Assembly: GCA_038323195.1 (NCBI GenBank)
Contig: JBBQGQ010000017.1
Span: 5-64,004, forward strand
From: Acidimicrobiia bacterium
Lineage (GTDB): Bacteria; Actinomycetota; Acidimicrobiia; IMCC26256; PALSA-610
Direction: 5' to 3'
Length of the DNA: 64,000 bases
Part shown: positions 3,472-24,529 of the stretch, piece after piece
How positions within the stretch are numbered: the first letter of the stretch is position 1
Layout of the letters: each line of letters opens with the position of its first letter
The notes under the pieces: model-generated
Told to the model about the DNA's origin: nothing
Database searches by the model: none
Seen by the model: only the letters and a program-made list of their open reading frames with translations
Made by a program: the position numbers and the translations under genes

Positions 3472-6030
3472 TCACGTCGGTGTGACGGGGTTGGACGCAG
3501 GCGATTGGGGTCCGGTGCCGACCGCGTTCTTGGCGGCGACTTTGAACCAGTACGTCTTGGCGGTGGTGAGGCCGGTGACGGTTTGGGTGGTGCCGGTGGA
3601 GTTGAAGGTGCGGGGGGCTTGCGTGACGCCGGCGAGGTAGGGCGTGATGATGTAGCCGGTCACGGGCGACCCGTTGCCGTTCGGTGCGGTCCAGTGCACC
3701 GTCGCCGAGGTGACACCGGCGGTCGCGGTGACGGCGGTCGGCGCGGTGGGCGCGCCGACGATGAGCTCGGCGGTCGATGCCGATTGAGCGCCGGCGCCGA
3801 GGGTGTTGGTCGCGGCCACGAGGAACGTGTACGGCTGGCCGGTCATCAGGCCGGTGAGGGTCACCGTGTTGGTGGACGCGGCAACTGTCGTGGTGGCGAG
3901 TGGGACGAATTTGTAGCGAGGTGTGACGACGTAGCCGGTGATCGTCGACCCGTTGTTGTTCGTGGGCGCGGTCCAGTGGATCGTGACCGAGGTGCTAGCG
4001 GGGCCCGGTGCGGCGGAGGCGATGGTGGGGGCGGTGGGTGCGCCGATCGTGGCGGTCGGTCGCCCCGCGGGTGTGCCGGTCCCGCGTGCGTTCAAGGCTG
4101 CGACCGTGAAGCTGTAGGTGTGGCCGTTGGTCAGGGAGCCGACGACGCCCGACGTCGCGTTCGCCGCGAAGGTGACCGGCGACAGCGGGAAGAGACCGAG
4201 GAACGGCGTGACCTGATAGCTGGTGATCGGTGAGCCGTTCGCGGCCACGGGCGCGGCCCATCCGACGATCGCGTTCCCGTTCCCGGGTGTTGCCGAGGTC
4301 GCGGTCGGCGCGGTGGGGGCGCCGACCGTGACCGGGCGGGTCGCGACGGAGAGCATTCCTGTGCCGATGGCGTTTGTGGCGAAGACCGTGAACGTGTAGG
4401 TCTGGCCGTTGGTGAGGCCCGCGACCGTGCCCGACGTCGCGGTCGCGGGAAAGCTTCGGGCCGGCAGGACGGTCGAGCCGAGATACGGGACGACGTGGTA
4501 GCTGGTGATCGGGGAGCCGCCGGTGGTGATCGGTCCCGTCCACTGCAGGGTCGCCTGTCCGCTGCCGGCGGTGACCGTGATGCTGCGCGGCGGATACGGC
4601 GCCACGTTCGTGAGGCTCGTCGTCGGGTGGACGGGCAGGAGCAGCGGTGGTTGCGGGGTCTGGGTGAAGTCGAAGTCGGAGGTCAGGTCGCCGAGGATCC
4701 CGCCGTTCTCGCGCACCGTTGGTCGCGGGTCGGGCCGGCCGTCGGTACTCGGGTCGAGGCGCTGGCCGCCGAGGAAGTCGTCCTCGATGAACTTGAGGTA
4801 GGCGTCGAAACTCAGGGTCTGGTGATCGACGTAGCCGTGCTTCGCGTACGGGCTGATCACGATGCCCGGCACCCGCAGGCCGTACCCGTTGACATCGACG
4901 CTCGGCGGGACGACGTGGTCGTAGAAGCCGCCCCAGTCGTCCCACGCCACGAAGATCGCCGTCGACGACCAGTCCGGTCCGTTCATGACCGCGTTCACCA
5001 AGCTGGTCACGTACGACTGGCCCGCGCTCACCGACCCGAGCGGCGCGTGCTCGCTCACGTCGCCCGACGGCACGACCCACGACACCGCGGGCAACGTCCC
5101 GGCGTGCGCAGCTGTAAAGAAGTTCGACACGCCCTGGATATTGCCGACCTGGTTGTCGGCGCGGACCGTGTCGAAGTACGGGAGCGGGTTCCAGATTCCC
5201 GGCGTGTACGGCTGCTGTGCGACCGGCGCGCACGACAACGTCGCGGCGTTCTGGCAGTCCGGTTCCGTCCCCGGCACCACGTAATACCCCCACGGGACGT
5301 TCGCCTGGTGCATCAGAAAGGTGAGGTCGGTCCACGCGTAGATCGGTGAGATCGGATTCAGACCCACCTTGGTCGGGTCTGCGAAGTTGTCGGGCCGGAA
5401 CCCGGTCTGGTTCAGGTCGCTCGTGCAGCTCGCGGCGACGTGGCTCGTGCAGCTCGCCGACCATCCCGACACCTGGAACAGGTGCTCGGGCAGGCTCCAC
5501 GACGCGTCCGGCTCCAACATGCGGTCCTGGAGCACGAAGTTGCGCGCGTACGCCCAATAGTTCGGGATGTCGCTCTCGGGGTGGTACCCGAGCACGTTCG
5601 TCGGATCGACCGGACAGCCCGCACTCGACGCGACGCAACTCTGCGCCGCTTTCTCCGACACGGTCAGGAACCCGTCCATCTTCCCGCCGTCGACGTCGTC
5701 CGTCGAGTTCGCCGCGCTGTGCGGTCCCCCGACAGTTACGTCGCGGTGATCGACGAACGGACGCTTGCAGCCCCCCGAGACCGACGGCAGGCACGCAGTC
5801 GGCACCCCGTTCACCATCGCGATCCCATTCGCGCCCGGGAACGTCCCGAAGTACTCGTCGAACGACCGGTTCTCCTGCATGATCACGACGACGTGTTGGA
5901 TCTTGTGGATCCCCGTCAACGCCGCGGAGGCACTCCGCGCGCCCGAAGCGCTCGCCAGCACCCAGGTGCTCAGCATCACGGCGAGCAGCAGGGCGATCGA
6001 TGCGCGACGCCGCCGCGTGACCCGGCTCAT
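3472..6030 (-). CDS. Secreted phosphoesterase (phospholipase C/AcpA family) with four C-terminal fibronectin type III domains
   Basis: Taken from ORF 3472..6084. The signal [30 protein letters not shown] is Tat-like. [21 protein letters not shown] is the phosphoesterase family signature. Four repeats of about 95 aa are each introduced by GAPTAPT or PPRS and contain W.AP...GSPITSY.V.P. An alternative start at ATG 6084 would add SPNDV x3. Confidence 0.85.
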
Positions 6031-6037
6031 GCAGAAC

Positions 6038-6084
6038 GTGTCGTTCGGAGACACGTCGTTCGGAGACACGTCGTTCGGAGACAA
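6038..6084. repeat. 15-bp tandem repeat, about 3 copies (tcgttcggagacacg)
   Basis: Direct reading of 6041-6055, 6056-6070 and 6071-6084. It lies 8-55 nt upstream of ATG 6030 on the minus strand. Confidence 0.9.
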
Positions 6085-6138
6085 GGAACGAATGACCGGG
6101 CCGGATCTCTCCGGTAGCTTTCAGCGACGGGCCGGCCG

Positions 6139-8133
6139 ATGCGCGTGGCCGGTCTCGACGGCAGAGGGACTCGCCTCATGTATTCGTACTCGGTACATCG
6201 ATCGAGCTCGGCGAAGTCCGGTCCACCGAACGATCCTCCGAAACCGCCGACCGGACGAAAGCCCACGCCGCGCTGGTTGCACACGGTGTGGGTCGTCGGG
6301 TTGATCGTGACGCTCCTGTTGTTGTTCGTGCCGAGCTCCACTCCTGCGACGAAATCGTTGACGTTGACGGATTGGAAGGCGAAGGTCGACGCCGATCAGG
6401 TGCAGACGGCGAGCATCGATCCCTCGGGCAAGGTGACCGGCGAGCTCACCGACAAGTCCAAGACACACTACGCATCGCGCATACCCGCCGCCCTGAACGA
6501 CAACACCCTCGCGGCCGAGTTGACGCAGCATCACGTTACGATCAGCGGGGTCACCAACGGGACGAGCTTTTGGAGCGTTATCGGCGGGTTAGCGCCCCTT
6601 GTGCTCCTCCTCGGGGTGTTCTTCTGGTTCAGCCGGCGCGCGACCCGCCAGCTCTCGGGCGGCCTGATGGGCATCGGTGCTTCGAAGGCGAAGGTGTACG
6701 ACCAGGACCGACCGAAGACCCGCTTCGCGGACGTGGCGGGATACGAAGGCGCGAAGCGAGAGATCAGCGAGGTCGTCGACTTTTTGAAGAACCCAGGGCG
6801 ATACGCGGCCGCGGGAGCCATCGCGCCGCGCGGCGTGCTCATGGTCGGTCCGCCCGGAACCGGAAAGACGCTCTTGGCGCGCGCGGTTGCCGGCGAAGCC
6901 GACGTTCCGTTCTTCGCGCTGACCGGTTCGAGCTTCGTCGAGATGTTCGTCGGGGTCGGTGCCGCGCGCGTGCGCGACCTGTTCACCGCGGCGCGCAAGG
7001 CCGCGCCCGCAATCATCTTCATCGACGAGGTGGACGCGATCGGACAGCGCCGCGGCGGTGCGTTGGTGTCGAACGACGAGCGCGAGCAGACGCTGAACCA
7101 GATGCTCGCCGAGATGGACGGCTTCGACCCGTCCTCGGGCGTGGTCGTGCTCGCCGCGACCAACCGGCCCGAGACGCTCGATCCGGCGTTGTTGCGTCCC
7201 GGCCGATTCGATCGCCAGGTCGAGATTCCGCTCCCCAACCTGCGCGAGCGAACCGCGATCCTTGCCGTGCACGCACGCGGCAAGCACTTGAGCCCCGACG
7301 TCGACCTCGAGGTCGTCGGACGATCGACGCCCGGCTTCTCCGGAGCCGACCTCGCGAATCTTCTCAACGAAGCCGCCATCGTGGCGGTACGCGCCGGACG
7401 CGACACCGTCACGGCCGCGGACTTCTCCGAAGCGCGCGACCGCATCCTGCTCGGCCGGCGGGAGGCGACGAACGCGCTCATGCCCGGCGAGAAGCACGCC
7501 GTCGCGGTCCACGAGTCCGGCCACGCACTCGTGGCTGCGCTGTCACCCAACGCCGATCCGGTTTCCAAGGTGACGATCCTGCCGGCGGGCCTCTCGTTGG
7601 GAGCGACCGAGCAGCTGCCGGCCGACGAGCGGCACCTCTACAGCGAGAGCTACCTGAAGGACTCGCTCGCAGTTCGACTCGGCGGTCGGGCGGCGGAGTT
7701 GCTGGTTCTCGGCGAGGCATCGTCGGGTGCGTCGAGCGACCTTGCGGGCGCGACCGACCTCGCGACGCGCATGGTGCGCGAATACGGCATGAGCGAGAAG
7801 CTGGGCCCGGTCGGTTTCGCGAGCGGCGCACCGATGTATCTCGGCGGCGAGCAGGTACACAGCCGTGATTACGCCGAAGCGACGCAGCGGGTAATCGACG
7901 AAGAGGTCTCCGAGCTGCTGAAGGAAGCCGAGAAACGCGCGTCCGCGCTGCTCGGCGATCATCGCGCCGCCCTCGATCGGCTGGTCGACGACCTGCTCGC
8001 GCACGAGACCGTCGACGGCGACGCCGTCGCGGCCGCGCTGAAGGGCGGAGCGGGGCCGTCCGAACCCGCCGAGAGCGGCGGCCCGCTCCGAACCCCGCAG
8101 TTCCAAGCGCGCGCGACGCCACCGACGTCGTGA
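6139..8133 (+). CDS. ftsH: ATP-dependent zinc metalloprotease FtsH
   Basis: Walker A GPPGTGKT, Walker [13 protein letters not shown] region [18 protein letters not shown] and the zinc motif HESGHA, with N-terminal TM helices. The start could instead be ATG 6178. Confidence 0.93.
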
Positions 8134-8136
8134 CGA

Positions 8137-16690: not shown

Positions 16691-18022
16691 TCAGCTCGAT
16701 TCACGGGACTGAACCCAGCGCGTGCCGTTCCACGTCGCGCGCCAGTCGGTGAACACGTTGCCGTTCCAGTAGCGCAGGGTCGTCGCGTCGCGGCGGAACC
16801 AACCGGGCGGGCTCTGCCCGGGTCGGGGGATCGTTACGGGCGTGCCGTCGGCGGACGCGTCCGACGCGAGTGCCGTGGGGGTGTTCGCCGCCAGTCCTCC
16901 GGTGAGCACCGGAGCCGCGCCGGCGCGGCGCTCCGCCGCGTGCGCGAGCTCGTCGAGGTCGACGGGTACACCGGTCGTGGTCGCGTCGACGGGGCCGCGC
17001 TCGTTCGGGTCGAGGCCCTCGAGCTTGCGCAGGATCGCGATGCGCTCGTCGAGCGGCGGGTGCGAGTCGAACATCTTGTTGAGCTTGGCGTGACGATCGT
17101 CGCCCTGATTGCGAAGCGGTGTCACGAGCCAGAGGTGCGCAGTTGCACGCGATACGTGGTGCACGACGGTGTGGTCGGCTTCCAGCTTCTCGAGCGCCTT
17201 GCGGATGCCGTCGGGCGAGACGAGCTCGGCCGCGCTGACGTCGGCGAGCTCCTCGCGGTGACGCGAGATCGCGAGCGAGAGAAGACGGGCGCCGAACGCG
17301 AGCACTCCGGCGAGCGCGGCGATGCCGATGAGCACGATCGCGCCGTTGTTGTTGTCGTCATCGCCCCAGTCGGCGAACCAGCTCATACGGGCCGCGATCT
17401 CGGCGACCGCGACGAGGATCCCGACCGTCGTCACCGCGAGCGTGGTCACCTGGACGTCGCGGTTGCGGACGTGCGACATCTCGTGCGCGAGCACGCCTTC
17501 GAGCTCGCGGCGCGACATGAGGTTGAGCAGACCCGTGGTGACCGCGACCCCGGAGCTCTGCGGCGACCGTCCGAACGCGAACGCGTTGGGGGCCGGATCG
17601 TCGACGATGTACACCCGCGGCTTCGGGAGCCCCGTGCGAATGCAGAGACCCTCGATGACATCGTGTAGCACCTTGGCCTGCTCCGGCGTGACCTCGACCG
17701 CGTGCGTCAGCGCGATGGTCGCGCGCACCGCGAGCATCCAACCGACCACGTCGACCACGATTGCAACCGCGGCGCCGACGAGGATCCCGGTCGGGACCGA
17801 GCGGGTGAGGAGGATGCCGATCGCGGCCCCGAGGATCCCGACCAGCACGAACTCGATCGCGAGCATGAGCAACGAGGTACGCCGGTTCTTGGCTATCAGC
17901 TCGACGTGGGTAACGGGTCCGGTTGTGTTCACGAGGCAACCATCGTCGCGCGGATGGGAACCCCGCTCGGTCCATGGGGCGGTCGCAGTGGTCGTCGTCG
18001 ACGTGGACCATCCCGACCGCAC
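16691..18022 (-). CDS. htpX: M48 zinc metalloprotease HtpX with a C-terminal extension
   Basis: HEMSHVRNRD (HExxH), four TM segments and a distal ELADVSAAEL motif. About 130 extra C-terminal residues end in GWFRRDATTLRYWNGNVFTDW, which is DUF2510-like. The true start is possibly GTG at about 17932. Confidence 0.85.
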   Translation of the reverse strand: MRSGWSTSTTTTATAPWTERGSHPRDDGCLVNTTGPVTHVELIAKNRRTSLLMLAIEFVLVGILGAAIGILLTRSVPTGILVGAAVAIVVDVVGWMLAVRATIALTHAVEVTPEQAKVLHDVIEGLCIRTGLPKPRVYIVDDPAPNAFAFGRSPQSSGVAVTTGLLNLMSRRELEGVLAHEMSHVRNRDVQVTTLAVTTVGILVAVAEIAARMSWFADWGDDDNNNGAIVLIGIAALAGVLAFGARLLSLAISRHREELADVSAAELVSPDGIRKALEKLEADHTVVHHVSRATAHLWLVTPLRNQGDDRHAKLNKMFDSHPPLDERIAILRKLEGLDPNERGPVDATTTGVPVDLDELAHAAERRAGAAPVLTGGLAANTPTALASDASADGTPVTIPRPGQSPPGWFRRDATTLRYWNGNVFTDWRATWNGTRWVQSRESS

Positions 18023-18106: not shown

Positions 18107-18643
18107 GTGAGCCTCGGTTCGGACATTGGTCGATCACTTGCCGGGCCCTATCTCGCCGCGTGCGCGTTGCTCTTGGTCGCGGGCGTGGGAAAAGTCCTCC
18201 GCCCCGCGCCGGCGCGGGCCGCGGTCAGTGCCGCGGGGCTGCGCCTTCCGCGTTCCGGAGTCGTCGCGTTCGGGCTCGTCGAGCTCGCGGCGGGGGGCGC
18301 GGGAGCCCTGCTCGGCGGCCGCGTCGCGTTCGCGGTTGCGGCGTGTTACCTCCTCTTGGGCGCATTCGCCGTCCGCCTTCTCGTTCGTGCGCCGACGGCA
18401 CCGTGCGCGTGTCTGGGCTCTACGAACGCGGTCGTGACCCGCACCCACGTCGTGATCGACGTCGCCGCGGCGTGCGTCGCGATCGGCGCGGCGTCGGGCG
18501 GTTCGCCGTTCGCGCCGATCGCCGGGCGTTGGCTCGCCGGCGCAGTGTTCATGGTGCTCGTGGCGTGTTGCGTGAAGCTCACGGCGCTCGCGCTCGAAGA
18601 GCTACCCCAACTCGCGACGGCCGCCGAGGAGGCAGCGCCATGA
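18107..18643 (+). CDS. MauE/DoxX-type redox-associated membrane protein
   Basis: GTG at 18107, 5 nt after GGAGG. Four predicted TM helices and a PCACLGS (C-x-C-x-G) motif. It lies in the frame of ORF 17702..18643. Confidence 0.65.
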   Translation: MSLGSDIGRSLAGPYLAACALLLVAGVGKVLRPAPARAAVSAAGLRLPRSGVVAFGLVELAAGGAGALLGGRVAFAVAACYLLLGAFAVRLLVRAPTAPCACLGSTNAVVTRTHVVIDVAAACVAIGAASGGSPFAPIAGRWLAGAVFMVLVACCVKLTALALEELPQLATAAEEAAP

Positions 18644-19383
18644 CCAATGTGATCCTGGCGGTCGAGACGGTTGCGCTCGTCCTGCTCACGCTGCTCGTCG
18701 CCGGTCTGCTGCGCAGCCACGCCGAGATCCTCCGCCGACTGCACGCGCTCGGCGCCGGGCTCGACCCCGACGCCCGGGATGCGGGGCCGGCGCCCGCGAC
18801 CGCGCGCCCCGAAGGTCTGCGATCCGGCGGAACCGAAGCCTTCGCCGAAGCTTCCGATCTCGACGGCGCGGGATTGCACGACGACGCGATGCACGTGTCG
18901 GTCGTCGGAGCCCGTCGGCGCACGCTGCTCGCCTTCTTGTCGAGCGGATGTTCCACCTGCCAGCGCTTCTGGGAGGCGTTCGCCGACCCGCTCGGGCTCG
19001 GTCTCTCGGACGCCACCCGGCTCGTCGTCGTGACCAAGGACGGTCGGGAGGAGAGCATCTCGGCGCTGCGAAGGCTGGCGCCTCCCGACGTGCCGGTCGT
19101 GATGTCGAGCGCGGCGTGGACCGACTACCGCGTTCCGGGTTCGCCGTATTTCGTGCTCGTCGACGGGCCCGACGGTCGCGTGCAGGGCGAGGGAACCGGC
19201 GCGAACTGGGCTCAGGTGAAGAATCTCCTGCGCCAGGCGGCCGACGACGCGATGGACGTGGGCGGCGGCGGCGCCGGGCGCGAGGTGCGCATCGACCGTG
19301 AGCTCCTCGCGCACGGTGTCGCACCGGGAGATCCGAGCCTGTACCGCACGGCCGCGCAGATCGCCGGGGAATCGCGCGCGTGA
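18640..19383 (+). CDS. Membrane-anchored thioredoxin-fold protein (MauD/TlpA-like), CSTC active site
   Basis: ATGA overlap at 18640. N-terminal TM helix VILAVETVALVLLTLLVAGLL, then LLAFLSSGCSTCQRFW and VPGSPYFVLVD. Confidence 0.7.
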   Translation: MTNVILAVETVALVLLTLLVAGLLRSHAEILRRLHALGAGLDPDARDAGPAPATARPEGLRSGGTEAFAEASDLDGAGLHDDAMHVSVVGARRRTLLAFLSSGCSTCQRFWEAFADPLGLGLSDATRLVVVTKDGREESISALRRLAPPDVPVVMSSAAWTDYRVPGSPYFVLVDGPDGRVQGEGTGANWAQVKNLLRQAADDAMDVGGGGAGREVRIDRELLAHGVAPGDPSLYRTAAQIAGESRA

Positions 19384-19463: not shown

Positions 19464-20057
19464 ATGCTCGCGAGCATCAATCCGCTCGGGGAGCGGGCCC
19501 GCAACCAGCGCTATACGACGACCGTCGCGGCCTACATCGTCGGCTCGACGGTCGCGGGCGCGATCCTTGGTGGCGTCCTCGGGTTCGTCGGCGCGCCCGT
19601 CGCGGGTCCGGAGGTCGCGCTCACCGCCGTCGCGCTGCTGGCCGCGGCGGGGATCCTGTTCGACGGTCGCCGGTTGGGAACGCGCGTGCCCGGGCCCCGG
19701 CGCCAGGTCGATGAGAACTGGCTCGTCACGTATCGCGGGTGGGTGTACGGCGCAGGGTTCGGTGTGCAGGTCGGGCTCGCGCTCGTGACCATCGTGACCG
19801 CGTCGGCAACGTGGGTCGCGTTCGGGTGCGCGCTGTTCTGCGCGAGCGCGCCTGCCGGTGCAGTGATCGGCGCGACTTTCGGACTTTCCCGCGCGCTCCC
19901 GATCCTTGCCGCCGCGCGCGTACGAGATCCGTCGAACCTGCGGCGGCTCGTACGCCGGCTGGAAGGGATGCGGCCGCGCGTCGCCGTCACGACGACGGCG
20001 GTCCAGGGAGCGGCCGCCGTCGGTCTGGTCGCGCTCGCGGTCGCGAAGGCGGCATGA
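19464..20057 (+). CDS. Integral membrane protein (about 5 TM), family not recognised
   Basis: 197-aa ORF with a GAGGAG SD upstream. Its hydrophobic segments alternate with basic loops. Confidence 0.65.
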   Translation: MLASINPLGERARNQRYTTTVAAYIVGSTVAGAILGGVLGFVGAPVAGPEVALTAVALLAAAGILFDGRRLGTRVPGPRRQVDENWLVTYRGWVYGAGFGVQVGLALVTIVTASATWVAFGCALFCASAPAGAVIGATFGLSRALPILAAARVRDPSNLRRLVRRLEGMRPRVAVTTTAVQGAAAVGLVALAVAKAA

Positions 20058-20506
20058 GAACACTCGCCGCGCACGGTCTTGCGCTCGCGTTGCCGTCCGG
20101 CTGGGAGGGGCGAATCCACCGCCGGACCGCCGCGGTGGCGGCCGAGCGGACCCATGCGGTGGTGCACCTCGCGAACTTCGCGTTGCCGGAACAGCGCGAC
20201 GACTTCGGTGGGAGTGTCACGCCCGCGATGCGGTCGCCCGACGTCTTCGTCACGTTGTTCGAGTACGGGGCCGGTTCACTCGGAACGCCGCTGTTCGCGC
20301 GCCAGGGTGTGCCGAGGGTCAGCGCCGACCTGTTCGGCTCGAAGCGCCTGCAACGGCCGCTTCCGGGCCAGCTCGGCTGCCAGCAGTTCTTCACGGCCAA
20401 CGGCCGGCCGTTCTGTCTCTACGTGGTCGCGGGGAGTCGCGCCCACCTGCCCGGCATCATCGCCGAGGTCAACGCGGTGCTCGCCGACCTTCGGGTACAG
20501 CCGTGA
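20054..20506 (+). CDS. Hypothetical soluble protein (150 aa), family not recognised
   Basis: ATGA overlap at 20054. It lies in the frame of ORF 19739..20506 (MRTLAAHGLALALPSGWEGR...). Coding-like composition and coupling on both sides. Confidence 0.55.
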   Translation: MRTLAAHGLALALPSGWEGRIHRRTAAVAAERTHAVVHLANFALPEQRDDFGGSVTPAMRSPDVFVTLFEYGAGSLGTPLFARQGVPRVSADLFGSKRLQRPLPGQLGCQQFFTANGRPFCLYVVAGSRAHLPGIIAEVNAVLADLRVQP

Positions 20507-20508
20507 CA

Positions 20509-21882
20509 ATGACCGAGCCGCGAGCGCGTCTCGGCGACCGCGTCGTCGCAGGTCTGACGAAGCGCATCGGTCGTGGCGTCACGCGGCGCGGCTTCCTGGT
20601 CCGCACCGCCGTCTTCGGCTCTGCACTTGCCGTCAATCCCCTGCGATATCTGTTGCGACCGGGCTCGGCGTACGCGTCGCTGTGCGGACCCGACACGTCG
20701 TGCACGTCGGGATGGACCGCGTTCTGTTGCACCGTCAATGGCGGCGAGAACACGTGCCCACCGGGATCGGTGCCGGCGGGGTGGTGGAAGGCCGACAACT
20801 CGGCGTTCTGTCATTCGGGGCCTCGCTACTACATCGATTGCAACGCGTCCTGCGGCAGCTGTGGATGTGGCAGCAGCGGCGTGTGTGGCCCCGAGTGCGC
20901 GGGGTGCAACTGCCACTGCGCGTCGGGCACCTGCGACGAGCGGTTCACGTGCTGCAACGAGTTCCGGTACGGGCAGTGCCATCAGGATCTCGCGTGTGTC
21001 GGGCCGATCGTGTGCCGCGTGGTCACGTGCGTCGCGCCCTGGGACTTCGACGCCACGTGCACGACGACGAGTGCGACTTCGAATGCGACCGCGCTTCACG
21101 ACGCCCCGTGCCTGCACGAATTCAGCTCGTCGGTGCTCGCGTTCGGTGCGGCGGCCGACCATGGCGAGCCGGTCGGGCCCCTGCAGCAGCCGGTCGTCGG
21201 GATCGAGGCCACACGTACCGGAGGCGGCTACTGGTTGGTCGCGTCGGATGGTGGTGTGTTCTGTTTCGGTGACGCACGTTTCCTCGGCTCGATGGGCGGT
21301 CAGCGGCTGAACCGCCCGATCGTCGACATCGCGCGTACTCCGACGGGCCTCGGCTACTGGTTGGTCGCGTCGGATGGTGGTGTGTTCTGTTTCGGTGACG
21401 CGCGCTTCCTGGGCTCGATGGGTGGTGAGCGCCTGAACCGCCCGATCGTGGGGATGGCGGCCTCCGCGACGGGCCCGGGTTATTGGCTGGTCGCGTCGGA
21501 TGGTGGTGTGTTCTGTTTCGGTGACGCGCGTTTCCTGGGTTCGATGGGTGGTGAGCGCCTGAACCGCCCGATCGTGGGGATGGCCGCGTCGGCGACCGGC
21601 CGCGGTTATTGGTTGGTCGCGTCGGATGGTGGTGTGTTCTGTTTCGGCGACGCGCGCTTCGCGGGCTCGACGGTCGACATCGCGCTCAACCGGCCGATCG
21701 TCGGAATCGCCGCCACCCCGAGCGGCGCAGGATATTGGTTCCTCGCCGCCGACGGCGGGATCTCGGCCTTCGGCGACGCGCGCTACATGGGCAGCGCGAA
21801 CAACCGAGTCCACGCCGGCGATGCCACCGATATCGCCGGGCGGACGGATGGTCGCGGCTACTGGATCGCGACCGATACCTAG
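20509..21882 (+). CDS. Tat-signal protein: 24-Cys MauA-like domain fused to a six-blade 42-residue-repeat propeller
   Basis: Lies in the frame of ORF 19906..21882. The start is ATG 20509, or GTG 20503 which overlaps the upstream TGA. Twin-arginine motif TRRGFLVRTAVFGSALA. The Cys-rich domain spans residues 59-201 and includes CC..NGG...CPPG. It is followed by repeats P.VG.A....G.GYWLVASDGGVF.FGDA.F.GS. Confidence 0.8.
   Translation: MTEPRARLGDRVVAGLTKRIGRGVTRRGFLVRTAVFGSALAVNPLRYLLRPGSAYASLCGPDTSCTSGWTAFCCTVNGGENTCPPGSVPAGWWKADNSAFCHSGPRYYIDCNASCGSCGCGSSGVCGPECAGCNCHCASGTCDERFTCCNEFRYGQCHQDLACVGPIVCRVVTCVAPWDFDATCTTTSATSNATALHDAPCLHEFSSSVLAFGAAADHGEPVGPLQQPVVGIEATRTGGGYWLVASDGGVFCFGDARFLGSMGGQRLNRPIVDIARTPTGLGYWLVASDGGVFCFGDARFLGSMGGERLNRPIVGMAASATGPGYWLVASDGGVFCFGDARFLGSMGGERLNRPIVGMAASATGRGYWLVASDGGVFCFGDARFAGSTVDIALNRPIVGIAATPSGAGYWFLAADGGISAFGDARYMGSANNRVHAGDATDIAGRTDGRGYWIATDT
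21190..21879 (+). repeat. In-frame 126-bp tandem repeats: four near-identical, then one degenerate and one partial
   Basis: The core tactggttggtcgcgtcggatggtggtgtgttctgtttcggtgacgc recurs at 21226, 21352, 21478 and 21604 with only a few substitutions. Confidence 0.9.
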
Positions 21883-21971: not shown

Positions 21972-22559
21972 ATGGAACAGAACGCAACCGACCAGGTCGC
22001 AACCCTGGATTTTGCCCTCCAGGCGCTGCAAGGGCAGATCGTCGTCTTGGCGGACGAGCAGATGGAGATCGTCTCGAACTGCGAACCCTGGACGGTCCGC
22101 CGGCTGGCCAGCCATGCGTTGAACAACCAATTGTTCTGGGCCGGCACCGTCACCGGAGAGGAAACGGTCTCGTTCGAGGCGACGATGGGCGCGGAGCCCT
22201 ACACCGGCGACCTCGCGCAATTCGCGGGCGAAGTCGCGCGCCGAGCCCTCGACATGTGGAGCACCGACGGCGTCTTCGACTCAAACCACGTCACGCCCCT
22301 CGGCGAGCTCCCGGGAACGGTGGTAATCAACTTCGCCATCATCGACGCTCTGTGTCACGCGTGGGATCTCGGTGCCAGCGTCGGTGCCCCGATCGAGTTT
22401 CCGCCGGACATGATTCCGACGATCGAGCTGGTGGTCGCGGCAACCTGCACCGACGCAGCACGCGACCATGACCTCATCAAGCCGGTACCGCCGACCCCAG
22501 CGGACGCCACCGCCACCGAACACCTCATGGCCTTGGCGGGTCGCGCCATTCCTCGCTGA
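21972..22559 (+). CDS. DinB-like / mycothiol-dependent maleylpyruvate isomerase N-terminal family (TIGR03086-like)
   Basis: CEPWTVRRLASHALNNQLFWAG and IIDALCHAWDLG. GGAGGG SD upstream. Confidence 0.7.
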   Translation: MEQNATDQVATLDFALQALQGQIVVLADEQMEIVSNCEPWTVRRLASHALNNQLFWAGTVTGEETVSFEATMGAEPYTGDLAQFAGEVARRALDMWSTDGVFDSNHVTPLGELPGTVVINFAIIDALCHAWDLGASVGAPIEFPPDMIPTIELVVAATCTDAARDHDLIKPVPPTPADATATEHLMALAGRAIPR

Positions 22560-22585
22560 CCGAACGACCTCGACGATCTGTACGG

Positions 22586-23358
22586 GTGGCGAAGATGGTT
22601 CGGCGGCGCCACGAACCTGACGATGATGCACTGTTCGCGCTCTTCGGTGCGATCGCTTCACATGATGACCTCGACATTGCGCGACGGCTGGACTCATCGC
22701 GCGATCTTGCAATCTGTTCGATTCGCATCGGGGCGAGCCGCCAAGATGCCGACACGTACTTCCTTGGTCCGATTCGTCATTACGTCTACGTGGGCGACAC
22801 CGCGCTGCACATCGCTGCTGCCGCGCATCGACGAGAACTCGCCGAGTCGCTCGTCACGAGAGGTGCTGACGTTCGCGCTCGTAACCGAAGGGGAGCTGAA
22901 CCGCTCCACTACGCCGCAGACGGGAGTCCCGGCGCGCAGCTCCGGGACCGGATTGCACAGCGTGACGTGATCACATATCTCATCGAAGCAGGCGCCGACC
23001 CGAACGCGTTGGACAAGAGTGGCGTGGCTCCGCTCCATCGAGCCGTTCGGACCCGTTGCTCGGATGCGGTCAGCGCCCTGATCGACGGCGGTGCGAATCC
23101 GCAACTGATGAACAAGCACGGTTCGACCCCGCTGCATCTCGCTGTTCAGAACACGGGCAAGAGCAACTCCGGCTCGCAAGCGGCGAGAGACGAACAGGGC
23201 CGGATCATCGTCTTGCTACTCGGACACGGCGCGAGTGCCACCGATACCGATGCGACGGCAAGACCGTCGCGGCCGCGGCAACCAGCGTCTGGATCCGTGA
23301 TCTGCTCGGCACCCCGGACGGCACTACGTCGCACCGGAAACTCGACAAGGGCCGCTGA
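22586..23358 (+). pseudogene. Ankyrin-repeat protein with an apparent 1-nt frameshift near 23255
   Basis: ANK repeats (GDTALHIAAAAHRRELAESLVTRGADVRARN, GVAPLHRAV, GSTPLHLAVQ). After ...GHGASATDTDA the frame of ORF 22586 turns into an R/P/S-rich tail. The natural continuation DGKTVAAAATSVWIRDLLG...* is in the frame of ORF 23056..23358. Confidence 0.6.
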
Positions 23359-23775
23359 CGCGCCAAGCAGACTCTCCGCCGCCATAACTGCCGTTGGGCC
23401 CTCGCATAACCGATCCAGAGCGAAGCCTGTTTGTGTCAAGAGCCTTGTTGGGGGCGGTGTTTGCGCGCGTTGGGTGGTGCCCGTGACATGACGCGTTGTC
23501 GGTTCTAGCCTTGTGGGTGGGTCCGGGAATGGCTGTTCCAGCAGCCAACCCCCTATGCCTAGTGAGCATTCTCGGGCGAGGCGGTCATGAGATGTCGGGT
23601 CGTATCGCCCCTCGCATCAGCGTCCCAGAGTGGGCATCTGTGCGCGCGGGGTTCCTGATGGGTGAACGGGTTCGAGCGCGTCGTTACCTGCGACGGACAA
23701 GATGTGCCCGCGGCCGTTTCTCCAAATGGGTCGTTGTCGAACCGACCCTCCGGGTCAGCTCGGGGCCGTCGTCGG

Positions 23776-24165
23776 TCAGTCACGCGTGACGAGGGCGTCT
23801 CGGATCTCTCGGAGCAGCATGACCTGCTCGTCGGGTTCGTCGCCCGCGTCTTCCTCACCAGCGGCCCGTTTGCGGTTCTGGTACGAGTCGTAGACCTTCA
23901 CGATCAAGAAGAGCACCAGGCCCGTGATCACGAGGTTGACGACCGTGTTGATGAACGAGCCGTACTGGATCACACCCTTGCCAATCTTGAGGGTGTTCGA
24001 GAACTCGGGCTTCCCGACAATCGCGCCGATGATCGGGTTGATGATGAACGAGACGAAGTCATCGATGACCTTCTTCGTCAAGCCGCCCATGACGAACGCA
24101 ACCGCGAGCATCAACACGTTGCCGGTCATGATGAACGCGACGAACTCTTTCCAAAGCTTCTTCAC
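23776..24165 (-). CDS. mscL: Large-conductance mechanosensitive channel MscL
   Basis: VKKLWKEFVAFIMTGNVLMLAVAFVMGGLTKKVIDDFVSFIINPIIG is a classic MscL N-terminus. The GTG start at 24165 is preceded by AGGAG. The longer ORF reaching 24312 is an upstream extension. Confidence 0.9.
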   Translation of the reverse strand: MKKLWKEFVAFIMTGNVLMLAVAFVMGGLTKKVIDDFVSFIINPIIGAIVGKPEFSNTLKIGKGVIQYGSFINTVVNLVITGLVLFLIVKVYDSYQNRKRAAGEEDAGDEPDEQVMLLREIRDALVTRD

Positions 24166-24529
24166 CGTGCCACTCCTCGCTGTAGGCGGACGGAGTAGAC
24201 CTATACGCCGAACGGGACCTGCACAAGCACGAGCCGCCGCAAAGGGATCGCTGGATGGTGCTGGCCGATCCCGAAGCCGACGAGTCTTGCGTCTTCCCAC
24301 AGGGACAGCCATAGCGCCCTAGCTGTACTGCCGATCGGTGTTCGCCACAGCCGATCCAGATCGGGGAATTCGGCTAGGCGGGAGCGTTGAAGTTGTTGTC
24401 GAGGACTGGCACGAGACGGTTGAAGACGTCGTTGTTGGGAAAGGGGCCCGGGCGGGTCTGGAATGACGTATGCGGTCTACGGTCCCGTCGTAGGGCGGCC
24501 GTGGTCCATCGTCGGCAATCAGCCCCCCG

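Follow-up and report, generated by a model that had tools for sequence, protein, structure and literature searches.

The 64,000-nucleotide stretch of Acidimicrobiia bacterium DNA analyzed here (contig JBBQGQ010000017.1; hereafter the window) carries a predicted five-gene operon that ends in a gene for a 457-aa protein with an extremely cysteine-rich domain, which we call the head. On balance, we favor the explanation that this protein is exported through a twin-arginine translocation (Tat)-type leader, that its head is a cystine-knotted domain with up to 12 disulfides related to MauA and AauA, the light chains of the tryptophan tryptophylquinone (TTQ)-dependent methylamine and aromatic amine dehydrogenases (MADH and AADH), and that it is built by four helpers encoded upstream: a MauE-family protein, a MauD-like thioredoxin, a MauF homologue, and a 150-aa protein, P150. 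What is new is a MauA-like client accompanied by a MauEDF maturation cassette in the absence of dehydrogenase partners.

The open reading frame (ORF) extends on the forward strand from the ATG at 20509 to the stop codon at 21882. An earlier note, made from the letters of the window, had counted 24 Cys in about 143 residues (59–201) around a CC-x3-GG-x3-CPPG-x5-WW core. Exact translation of 20683–21111 (+) yields the same picture: 143 residues containing 24 Cys (16.8%) and 4 Trp, which are residues 59–201 when counted from ATG 20509, with the core at residues 73–93. Such a cysteine content lies far above chance, and the ORF is a real gene: 108 full-length homologues, 49–98% identical, retain its Cys pattern. 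The parts of the protein are as follows:

20509–20676 (+): twin-arginine leader, residues 1–56, with a conserved n-region, R26-R27, a hydrophobic core, and A-Y-A directly before S57
20683–21111 (+): Cys-rich head, residues 59–201, 24 Cys, with the motifs CC..N.G.N.CPPG....GWWK.D, RYY.DC, FRYGQC, and CR...C.PW
21028–21072 (+): optional disulfide-stapled insert within the head, residues 116–130, GSCGCGSSGVCGPEC, gapped in about 50–58 of 257 aligned copies
21127–21882 (+): six-bladed beta-propeller tail, residues about 207–457, built of ~42-aa repeats GYWLVASDGGVFxFGDAxFxGS

The head and its predicted disulfides

A database search returned thousands of relatives. Across the 108 homologues, 15 Cys are invariant, as are W92, W93, K94, D96, R106, D110, F152-R153-Y154-G155, R170, and W178. 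A profile of the head, run against 1.84 billion representative proteins, recovered 481 clusters at 50% identity with E ≤ 1e-3; for 192 of these, E was 1e-30 or lower. When 257 copies of the head were aligned, P84, G91, W92, W93, C142, F152, R153, Y154, G155, C169, R170, and C174 were unchanged in every one, and 20 or so further positions were retained in more than 95%. The earlier note had looked to such an alignment to tell invariant Cys and Trp from low-complexity drift; the fixed core rules out drift and marks the head as a defined domain. Neither the head nor P150 has a model in Pfam-A (2025 copy) or NCBIfam 20.0, and literature searches turned up no description of the head family. The invariant W92, W93, F152-R153-Y154-G155, and R170 argue that the head is more than a spacer and would present a specific surface for catalysis or ligand binding; K94, D96, R106-Y107, D110, and Q156, which are near-invariant, likewise suggest a specific site. 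In the AlphaFold2 (AF2) model of the full-length protein, the head has a predicted local distance difference test (pLDDT) score of about 70–89.

The leader is similarly constrained. Of 109 homologues, 107 retain R26 and R27; most representatives have an RR motif close to the N-terminus, ahead of the head; and the NCBIfam Tat model TIGR01409 matches at E 0.041, slightly under its cutoff.

The distribution of Cys among the 257 copies indicates that the head carries up to 12 disulfides and not a metal cluster, because the Cys count is even and the variable Cys are lost in correlated pairs. The head total is even (16, 18, 20, 22, 24, or 26) in 231 of the 257 copies, and the co-lost pairs are C133–C148 (phi 0.90), C135–C149 (0.86), and C115–C163 (0.72). 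Within the insert, C118, C120, C126, and C130 are gained or lost jointly (phi 0.75–0.89), and the whole block CGSCGCGSSGVCGPEC (residues 116–130) is absent from about a fifth of the copies. The earlier note had likened the second half of the head to a metallothionein- or granulin-type Cys cluster, and this part of it finds no support in the even count, the pairwise losses, and the optional nature of CGSCGCGSSGVCGPEC. Although CxC and CxxC spacings are locally dense, we consider it highly improbable that the Cys cluster, notably CGSCGCGSSGVCGPECAGCNCHC, binds metal as a metallothionein-like, iron–sulfur, or zinc module: the protein would be exported to the oxidizing side and served by a disulfide machinery dedicated to it, 90% of copies have an even number of Cys with correlated loss of pairs, the block is missing from about a fifth of copies, and a Pfam scan of the protein gave no metallothionein, granulin, or other metal-binding family. 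A cofactor of the cysteine tryptophylquinone (CTQ) type was also judged unlikely, since a Cys–Trp crosslink would leave an odd Cys count and the observed count is even.

The proposed maturation cassette

The four genes upstream of the head gene lie on the same strand:

18107–18643 (+): membrane protein of the MauE family, 178 aa, with a GTG start behind GGGAGG; PF07291 E 1.9e-7 (31.8 bits; cutoff 27)
18640–19383 (+): MauD-like thioredoxin-fold protein, 247 aa, N-terminal transmembrane helix, C-S-T-C active site; BLASTP to Paracoccus denitrificans MauD E 2e-8
19464–20057 (+): polytopic membrane protein of 197 aa, homologous to MauF and without conserved Cys; GAGGAG precedes the start
20054–20506 (+): P150, conserved 150-aa protein without signal peptide or transmembrane segment; orthologues 66% (locus L002) and 40% (locus L001) identical

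ATGA start/stop overlaps join the MauE and MauD-like genes (18640–18643) and the MauF and P150 genes (20054–20057), and a gap of 2 nt precedes 20509; the head gene is the last of a translationally coupled five-gene operon.

The window MauE has C-A-C-L-G at the CxC active-site position of its family, where 76 orthologues share the consensus sCgCfG, and the cassette profile, which like those of the other helpers was made from the orthologues, specifically matches P. denitrificans MauE at E 3.3e-14. This consensus agrees with the MauE motif defined in bioRxiv 10.64898/2026.03.05.709764, where MauE was found to substitute for DsbB in E. coli via its CxC site, probably in a quinone-linked manner. 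The adjoining thioredoxin gives a profile match to P. denitrificans MauD at E 5.2e-14, with FLssgC.tC..FW conserved across 78 orthologues, and fails the TIGR02661 equivalog model (E 2e-4, 20.7 bits against a cutoff of 188.6). We designate the product of 18640–19383 MauD-like and not MauD because it is, by its sequence, homologous and of the same design of membrane anchor and CxxC site, yet falls far below that cutoff. For the third helper, the cassette profile matches P. denitrificans MauF at E 1.2e-21 (63 bits, profile positions 15–174 on residues 98–260); the window protein itself, 51% identical to the L001 orthologue, matches MauF pairwise by BLASTP at E 0.003. P150 has no Pfam or NCBIfam match and no similarity to MauJ, its profile matches nothing in the P. 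denitrificans mau cluster, and its best PDB match (trehalose-phosphate synthase, E 0.12) was judged to be chance. At 90% identity, its relatives fall into at least 4153 clusters, each of about 150 aa and each named hypothetical, with invariant positions that include G16-W17, H38, R48, G52 (within R-G-D-F-G), E70, Q100, G105, G108, Q110, and R118.

To follow the cassette across genomes, one genome per GTDB species was scanned, revealing at least 558 loci that encode the head. Eighty were kept for examination and, with two further loci, give the 82 on which the synteny counts rest; several of these end at contig borders, so the figures are minimal. Near the head gene, the thioredoxin and P150 each occur in 76 of the 82 loci, MauE in 73 of them, and the MauF homologue in 55; the operon is seen again in about 70–90% of the loci. 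The cassette genes are nearly all co-oriented and recur in two orders, E-D-F-P150-head or E-head-D-F-P150. MauE (with SCGCFG), an RR leader, and the head occur as one in-frame polypeptide in the clusters P0172, P0160, and P0233 and at 3649–5532 of locus L043, which reflects either a true fusion of the genes, tying MauE to the head, or a stop codon lost in the assemblies. Only one locus with full flanks, a 14.4-kb stretch of an uncultured Microthrixaceae bacterium (L026), has a head gene with none of the four helpers within 7 kb. The helpers for such orphan copies are presumably encoded in a cassette at another place in the genome.

These arrangements suggest the following route. The precursor would be exported via its Tat-type leader. 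Judging from homology and synteny, MauE would act as a DsbB-like membrane oxidase that generates disulfides at its CxC site, and the membrane-anchored MauD-like CxxC thioredoxin would pass them to, or isomerize them on, the 24-Cys head. The MauF homologue and P150 may assist at further maturation steps. P150, apparently cytoplasmic, might bind the n-region of the unusually long and conserved leader, a role proposed because it lacks export signals. Once the head is exported and oxidized, a C-terminal tail of interchangeable type, here a six-bladed propeller, would hold it at the cell envelope. The earlier note had raised the possibility of a Tat-exported cystine knot oxidized by an upstream CxxC protein; the conserved synteny is consistent with this, and the CxxC protein it singled out is present, but the set of helpers is larger than it had recorded, comprising MauE, the MauD-like and MauF-like proteins, and the 150-aa protein.

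Probable kinship with MauA and the question of a quinone cofactor

We think it probable that the head shares ancestry with the TTQ-dehydrogenase light chains MauA and AauA, which is the most economical reading of the mature-domain tests taken jointly and of the adjoining MauE, MauD-like, and, especially, MauF homologues. For profile–profile comparison by hhalign, an alignment of 37 MauA/AauA precursors served as the reference, and column-shuffled MauA profiles served as the control for Cys/Gly-rich composition. The full-length head family aligned at a probability of 96.9% and E 1.9e-10 over 125 collinear columns, spanning the leader, C59, C65, C73, CPPG, W93 (placed on Trp57), and C101, and reaching C133/C135. 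The leader alone matched the MauA leader at E 1.6e-10, and the n-region upstream of RR alone at E 7.8e-6 over 17 columns, its score of 17.7 lying above all 200 column shuffles (mean 5.1, sd 1.4; z 8.8). The mature part alone gave E 0.0017–0.0023 over 18–29 columns around GG..CPPG..W at a probability of 12–15%, and a single one among 300 column shuffles reached its score of 24.8 (shuffle mean 14.1, sd 3.0; z 3.6). The earlier note had proposed an HMM–HMM comparison of residues 50–205; the likeness to MauA lies chiefly in the leader, and for the N-terminal half of the mature domain it exceeds the shuffled controls but is weak. In a phmmer search of the PDB, AADH small subunits were the best and the only thematically coherent matches (E about 5, with CC..GG...CPPGS paired), and Foldseek with a model of the domain alone (pLDDT 62) placed AADH small subunits in all of its top five positions (E 1.5–3.0, template modeling (TM) scores 0.14–0.22). 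No single mature-domain test is decisive; the operon context, with MauE, the MauD-like protein, and the MauF homologue, supports the link to MauA independently.

The two families have much in common besides. Both have a long Tat-type leader with an n-region conserved upstream of RR, followed by a small, beta-rich exported domain crammed with disulfides, and both share an N-terminal Cys framework of the form C-x5-C-x6/7-C(x)C-x7/8-CPPG-x8-10-W-...-C-...-Y-x-I-...-DC. In a weak alignment, an invariant Trp of the head stands at the position of the quinone-bearing Trp57 of MauA, and the genes of both lie downstream of mauE and mauD with a mauF homologue. In contrast to MauA, the head has 24 Cys rather than 12, and its second half, about 90 residues with 13 Cys, has no MauA counterpart. 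Unlike MauA and AauA, it lacks a PF02975 match and a clear second TTQ tryptophan, is fused to wall-binding or propeller tails, and occurs in a cassette without MauB or MauG and, among the neighbors scanned, without amicyanin or cytochrome. The head is also essentially confined to Actinomycetota and not to Pseudomonadota.

Several observations weigh against this explanation. PF02975 does not match the 457-aa protein even at E ≤ 1, while P. denitrificans MauA scores 180 bits; of the earlier note's comparison of the first half of the head with an MADH light chain, what remains is a distant relationship, seen by hhalign and in the operon, without membership in that family. HMMER profiles of the head match neither the PDB light chains nor P. 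denitrificans MauA, and a whole-family HMMER profile run against the PDB gave an insignificant match of the repeats to the GyrA C-terminal domain and none for the head. The significance of the profile–profile comparison comes mostly from the leader, whose S/T-R-R-x-F-L part is generic to Tat substrates, and the mature-domain match spans only 18–29 columns. The Foldseek matches to light chains, with E > 1 and TM scores of about 0.2, come from a domain model of low confidence (pLDDT 62) and are at best suggestive. Cys parity and co-loss are the basis of the disulfide map, and the roles proposed for MauD, MauF, and P150 rest on the mau literature and on gene position.

These points leave room for the head to be an unrelated, convergent Cys-rich fold, with the likeness in CPPG..W and in the leader due to chance or functional convergence and the mau-like genes serving as a generic folding kit; the leader, for example, could have been shaped by a shared MauE/MauF route of export and oxidation. 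The short, weak mature-domain match and the silence of the HMMER profiles are what such a fold would give, and MauE is now viewed as a generalist, with MauA in only about 10% of MauE-bearing species and with MauE clusters of Streptomyces that adjoin unrelated small Cys-rich peptides. We nevertheless regard convergence as unlikely, though a serious contender. Three collinear segments (the n-region, the RR core, and GG..CPPG..W) each exceed shuffled controls, the first six Cys are spaced as in MauA to within 1–2 residues, and the AADH light chain tops two independent searches of the whole PDB, by phmmer and by Foldseek. A MauF homologue is also present, at 63 bits, and as far as we know from mau clusters MauF is not a generic factor.

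A further rival is that the head is a true quinoprotein in which W93 (or W92) is oxidized to a TTQ- or CTQ-like quinone in a wall-tethered oxidase or dehydrogenase of amines or another substrate, the cofactor being formed without a MauG in the cassette. W92 and W93 are invariant in all 257 copies, W93 lies in a predicted beta-hairpin (residues 87–98 and 104–115) and aligns, weakly, with the TTQ-bearing Trp57 of MauA, and the near-invariant Y-x-I-D-C after the hairpin resembles Y-L-I-A-Y-R-D-C of MauA. The helpers MauE, MauD, and MauF are all represented, and a head that stays constant while the targeting tails vary is typical of enzymes. We find this possibility distinctly doubtful, however, because neither the window nor 80 of the 82 loci encodes a MauG-like di-heme protein: ORFs with at least two CxxCH motifs occur in only 2 of the 82 loci and are absent from the window, and the cassette profiles match neither MauB nor MauG in the P. 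denitrificans mau cluster. The flanking genes that were scanned included no cupredoxin or cytochrome. W178, the only candidate for a second Trp, is replaced by Tyr in 20 of the 257 copies, W69 is Tyr or Phe in 101, and no head region aligns to the second TTQ tryptophan of MauA, Trp108. The hhalign alignment does not place D110 on Asp76, and the even Cys count speaks against a Cys–Trp crosslink of the CTQ kind. A fused propeller standing in for MauB was likewise considered and rejected, since LGFP, SLH, CWB2, FG-GAP, and other tails replace it in most relatives.

We therefore do not call the head protein an amine dehydrogenase, given a cassette without MauB or MauG and neighbors in which the scan met neither cupredoxin nor cytochrome; nor do we claim membership in PF02975 or the TTQ-enzyme class, for which the second TTQ tryptophan and a MauA equivalent of the second half are also lacking. 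A bolder form of the quinoprotein proposal is that the family is a hitherto unrecognized clade of cell-surface, MauA-derived quinoproteins of Actinomycetota in which W92-W93, with K94, D96, and D110, would give rise to a tryptophan-derived redox cofactor without MauG. It is speculative, and we would not expect it to hold; P150 or MauF would perhaps assist the cofactor, and the wall-binding tails would position a redox head on the envelope. Descent of the head from a common ancestor with the light chains, as a disulfide-rich client of the cassette, is the reading we retain.

Tails, hosts, related systems, and significance

The C-terminal partners of the head vary. Among 97 representatives they include LGFP (35), FG-GAP_3 (5), CWB2 (3), DUF4214 (3), and SLH (2), as well as Tectonin and others, and a propeller-type tail occurs in only 13 of the 82 genomic loci. 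LGFP, SLH, and CWB2 are named cell-wall-binding modules, for which reason the head is likely the constant functional part of these proteins and the tails interchangeable anchors. In the window protein, AF2 models the tail (pLDDT > 90) as a sixfold repeat with about three strands per unit, and Foldseek with the full-length model matched this tail to WD40/RCC1-type propellers at E about 1e-9, which is uninformative for the head. The underlying DNA at 21225–21710 is a 126-bp × 3.9 tandem repeat of 86% identity, and the near-identity of blades 2–4 as protein suggests recent internal duplication. Every 126-bp copy also yields a spurious "terminator-like" match in a consensus scan.

The hosts of the 80 loci include Acidimicrobiia (Microthrixaceae, Iamiaceae), Frankiales, Mycobacteriales, Nitriliruptoraceae, and cultured Kineococcus; apart from one metagenome-assembled genome labeled Gemmatimonadaceae and two unclassified, all are labeled Actinomycetota. 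The genes flanking the cassette are unrelated and differ between loci. In the window they include an HtpX-like peptidase and genes for DinB-like, ankyrin, and MscL proteins, acyl-CoA dehydrogenases, and a Mo-hydroxylase. The nearest upstream neighbor is:

16691–18022 (−): HtpX-like M48 peptidase with a long C-terminal extension; PF01435 E 3e-32; divergent from the cassette

Its upper end (18022) and the MauE start (18107) are about 85 bp apart, and the peptidase gene is not kept as a neighbor at L001 or L002. Downstream (21972–23491, and 23776–24312 on the opposite strand) follow a DinB/MDMPI_N-family protein, a multi-ankyrin-repeat protein, and, on the opposite strand, MscL, all apparently unrelated to the cassette. 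Ankyrin repeats are uncommon in bacteria.

The mauFBEDACJGMN cluster of Paracoccus and Methylobacterium is likewise among the closest known systems. Homologues of MauE, MauD, and MauF are found in the cassette as well, co-oriented and coupled beside a Cys-rich substrate, and the CxC-F-G motif of MauE and the CxxC motif of MauD are conserved in both. According to the passage of PMC7794033 that cites van der Palen 1997, maturation of the MADH small subunit needs MauE and MauD. Unlike the mau cluster, the cassette has the order E-D-F-P150-substrate or E-substrate-D-F-P150; its MauD-like protein lies far below the TIGR02661 cutoff and bears a C-terminal extension, and P150 has no counterpart in the P. 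denitrificans cluster.

The nearest published observation is that of Cys-rich candidate precursors of ribosomally made, post-translationally modified peptides (RiPPs) in Streptomyces, predicted by decRiPPter (PMC7794033), where, as here, mauE with or without mauD lies beside a Cys-rich gene and the rest of the mau cluster is absent. Those peptides are about 60 aa long with 8–10 Cys, without a Tat RR and without the GWWK and FRYGQC motifs of the head family, whereas the protein described here is a 457-aa multidomain one. In table S2 of PMC7794033, the mauE-adjacent Cys-rich peptides of three Streptomyces genomes begin ALESLSSRLLGLFVP, SLSALAGRAFARVLP, and KLEAVGSALLERLVP; by eye, these leaders resemble the n-region common to MauA precursors and the head family (..DRVVAGLTKRIGR..; window 20509–20580). 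The shared n-region may be a common leader element recognized by MauE-type systems.

Another non-canonical MauA context outside Pseudomonadota is found on a Thermomicrobium roseum plasmid (NC_011961, locus L006), which carries an annotated "methylamine dehydrogenase light chain" and a second, unannotated MauA-like match (717–1169, 6001–6219). A 596-aa MauE/DoxX fusion protein is encoded at 6344–8134 of this locus among hypothetical genes, with no MauB annotated nearby.

To our knowledge, MauE, MauD, and MauF together had until now a single known client, the MADH small subunit. The cassette joins the trio to a second, widespread client, encoded at no fewer than 558 loci of species-representative genomes and forming 481 clusters at 50% identity, and gives a second genetically tractable system in which to probe the functions of MauD and MauF; cultured Kineococcus strains carry it. 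In Actinomycetota, VKOR- and DsbA-type pathways of disulfide formation have been regarded as dominant; the cassette lends genomic support to the recent proposal that MauE is a disulfide generator. The head is an undescribed domain, among the most disulfide-dense in bacteria, and bears on protein engineering as well as on how disulfide-rich proteins pass through Tat export. Should it carry a cofactor, it would represent a new kind of surface redox enzyme.

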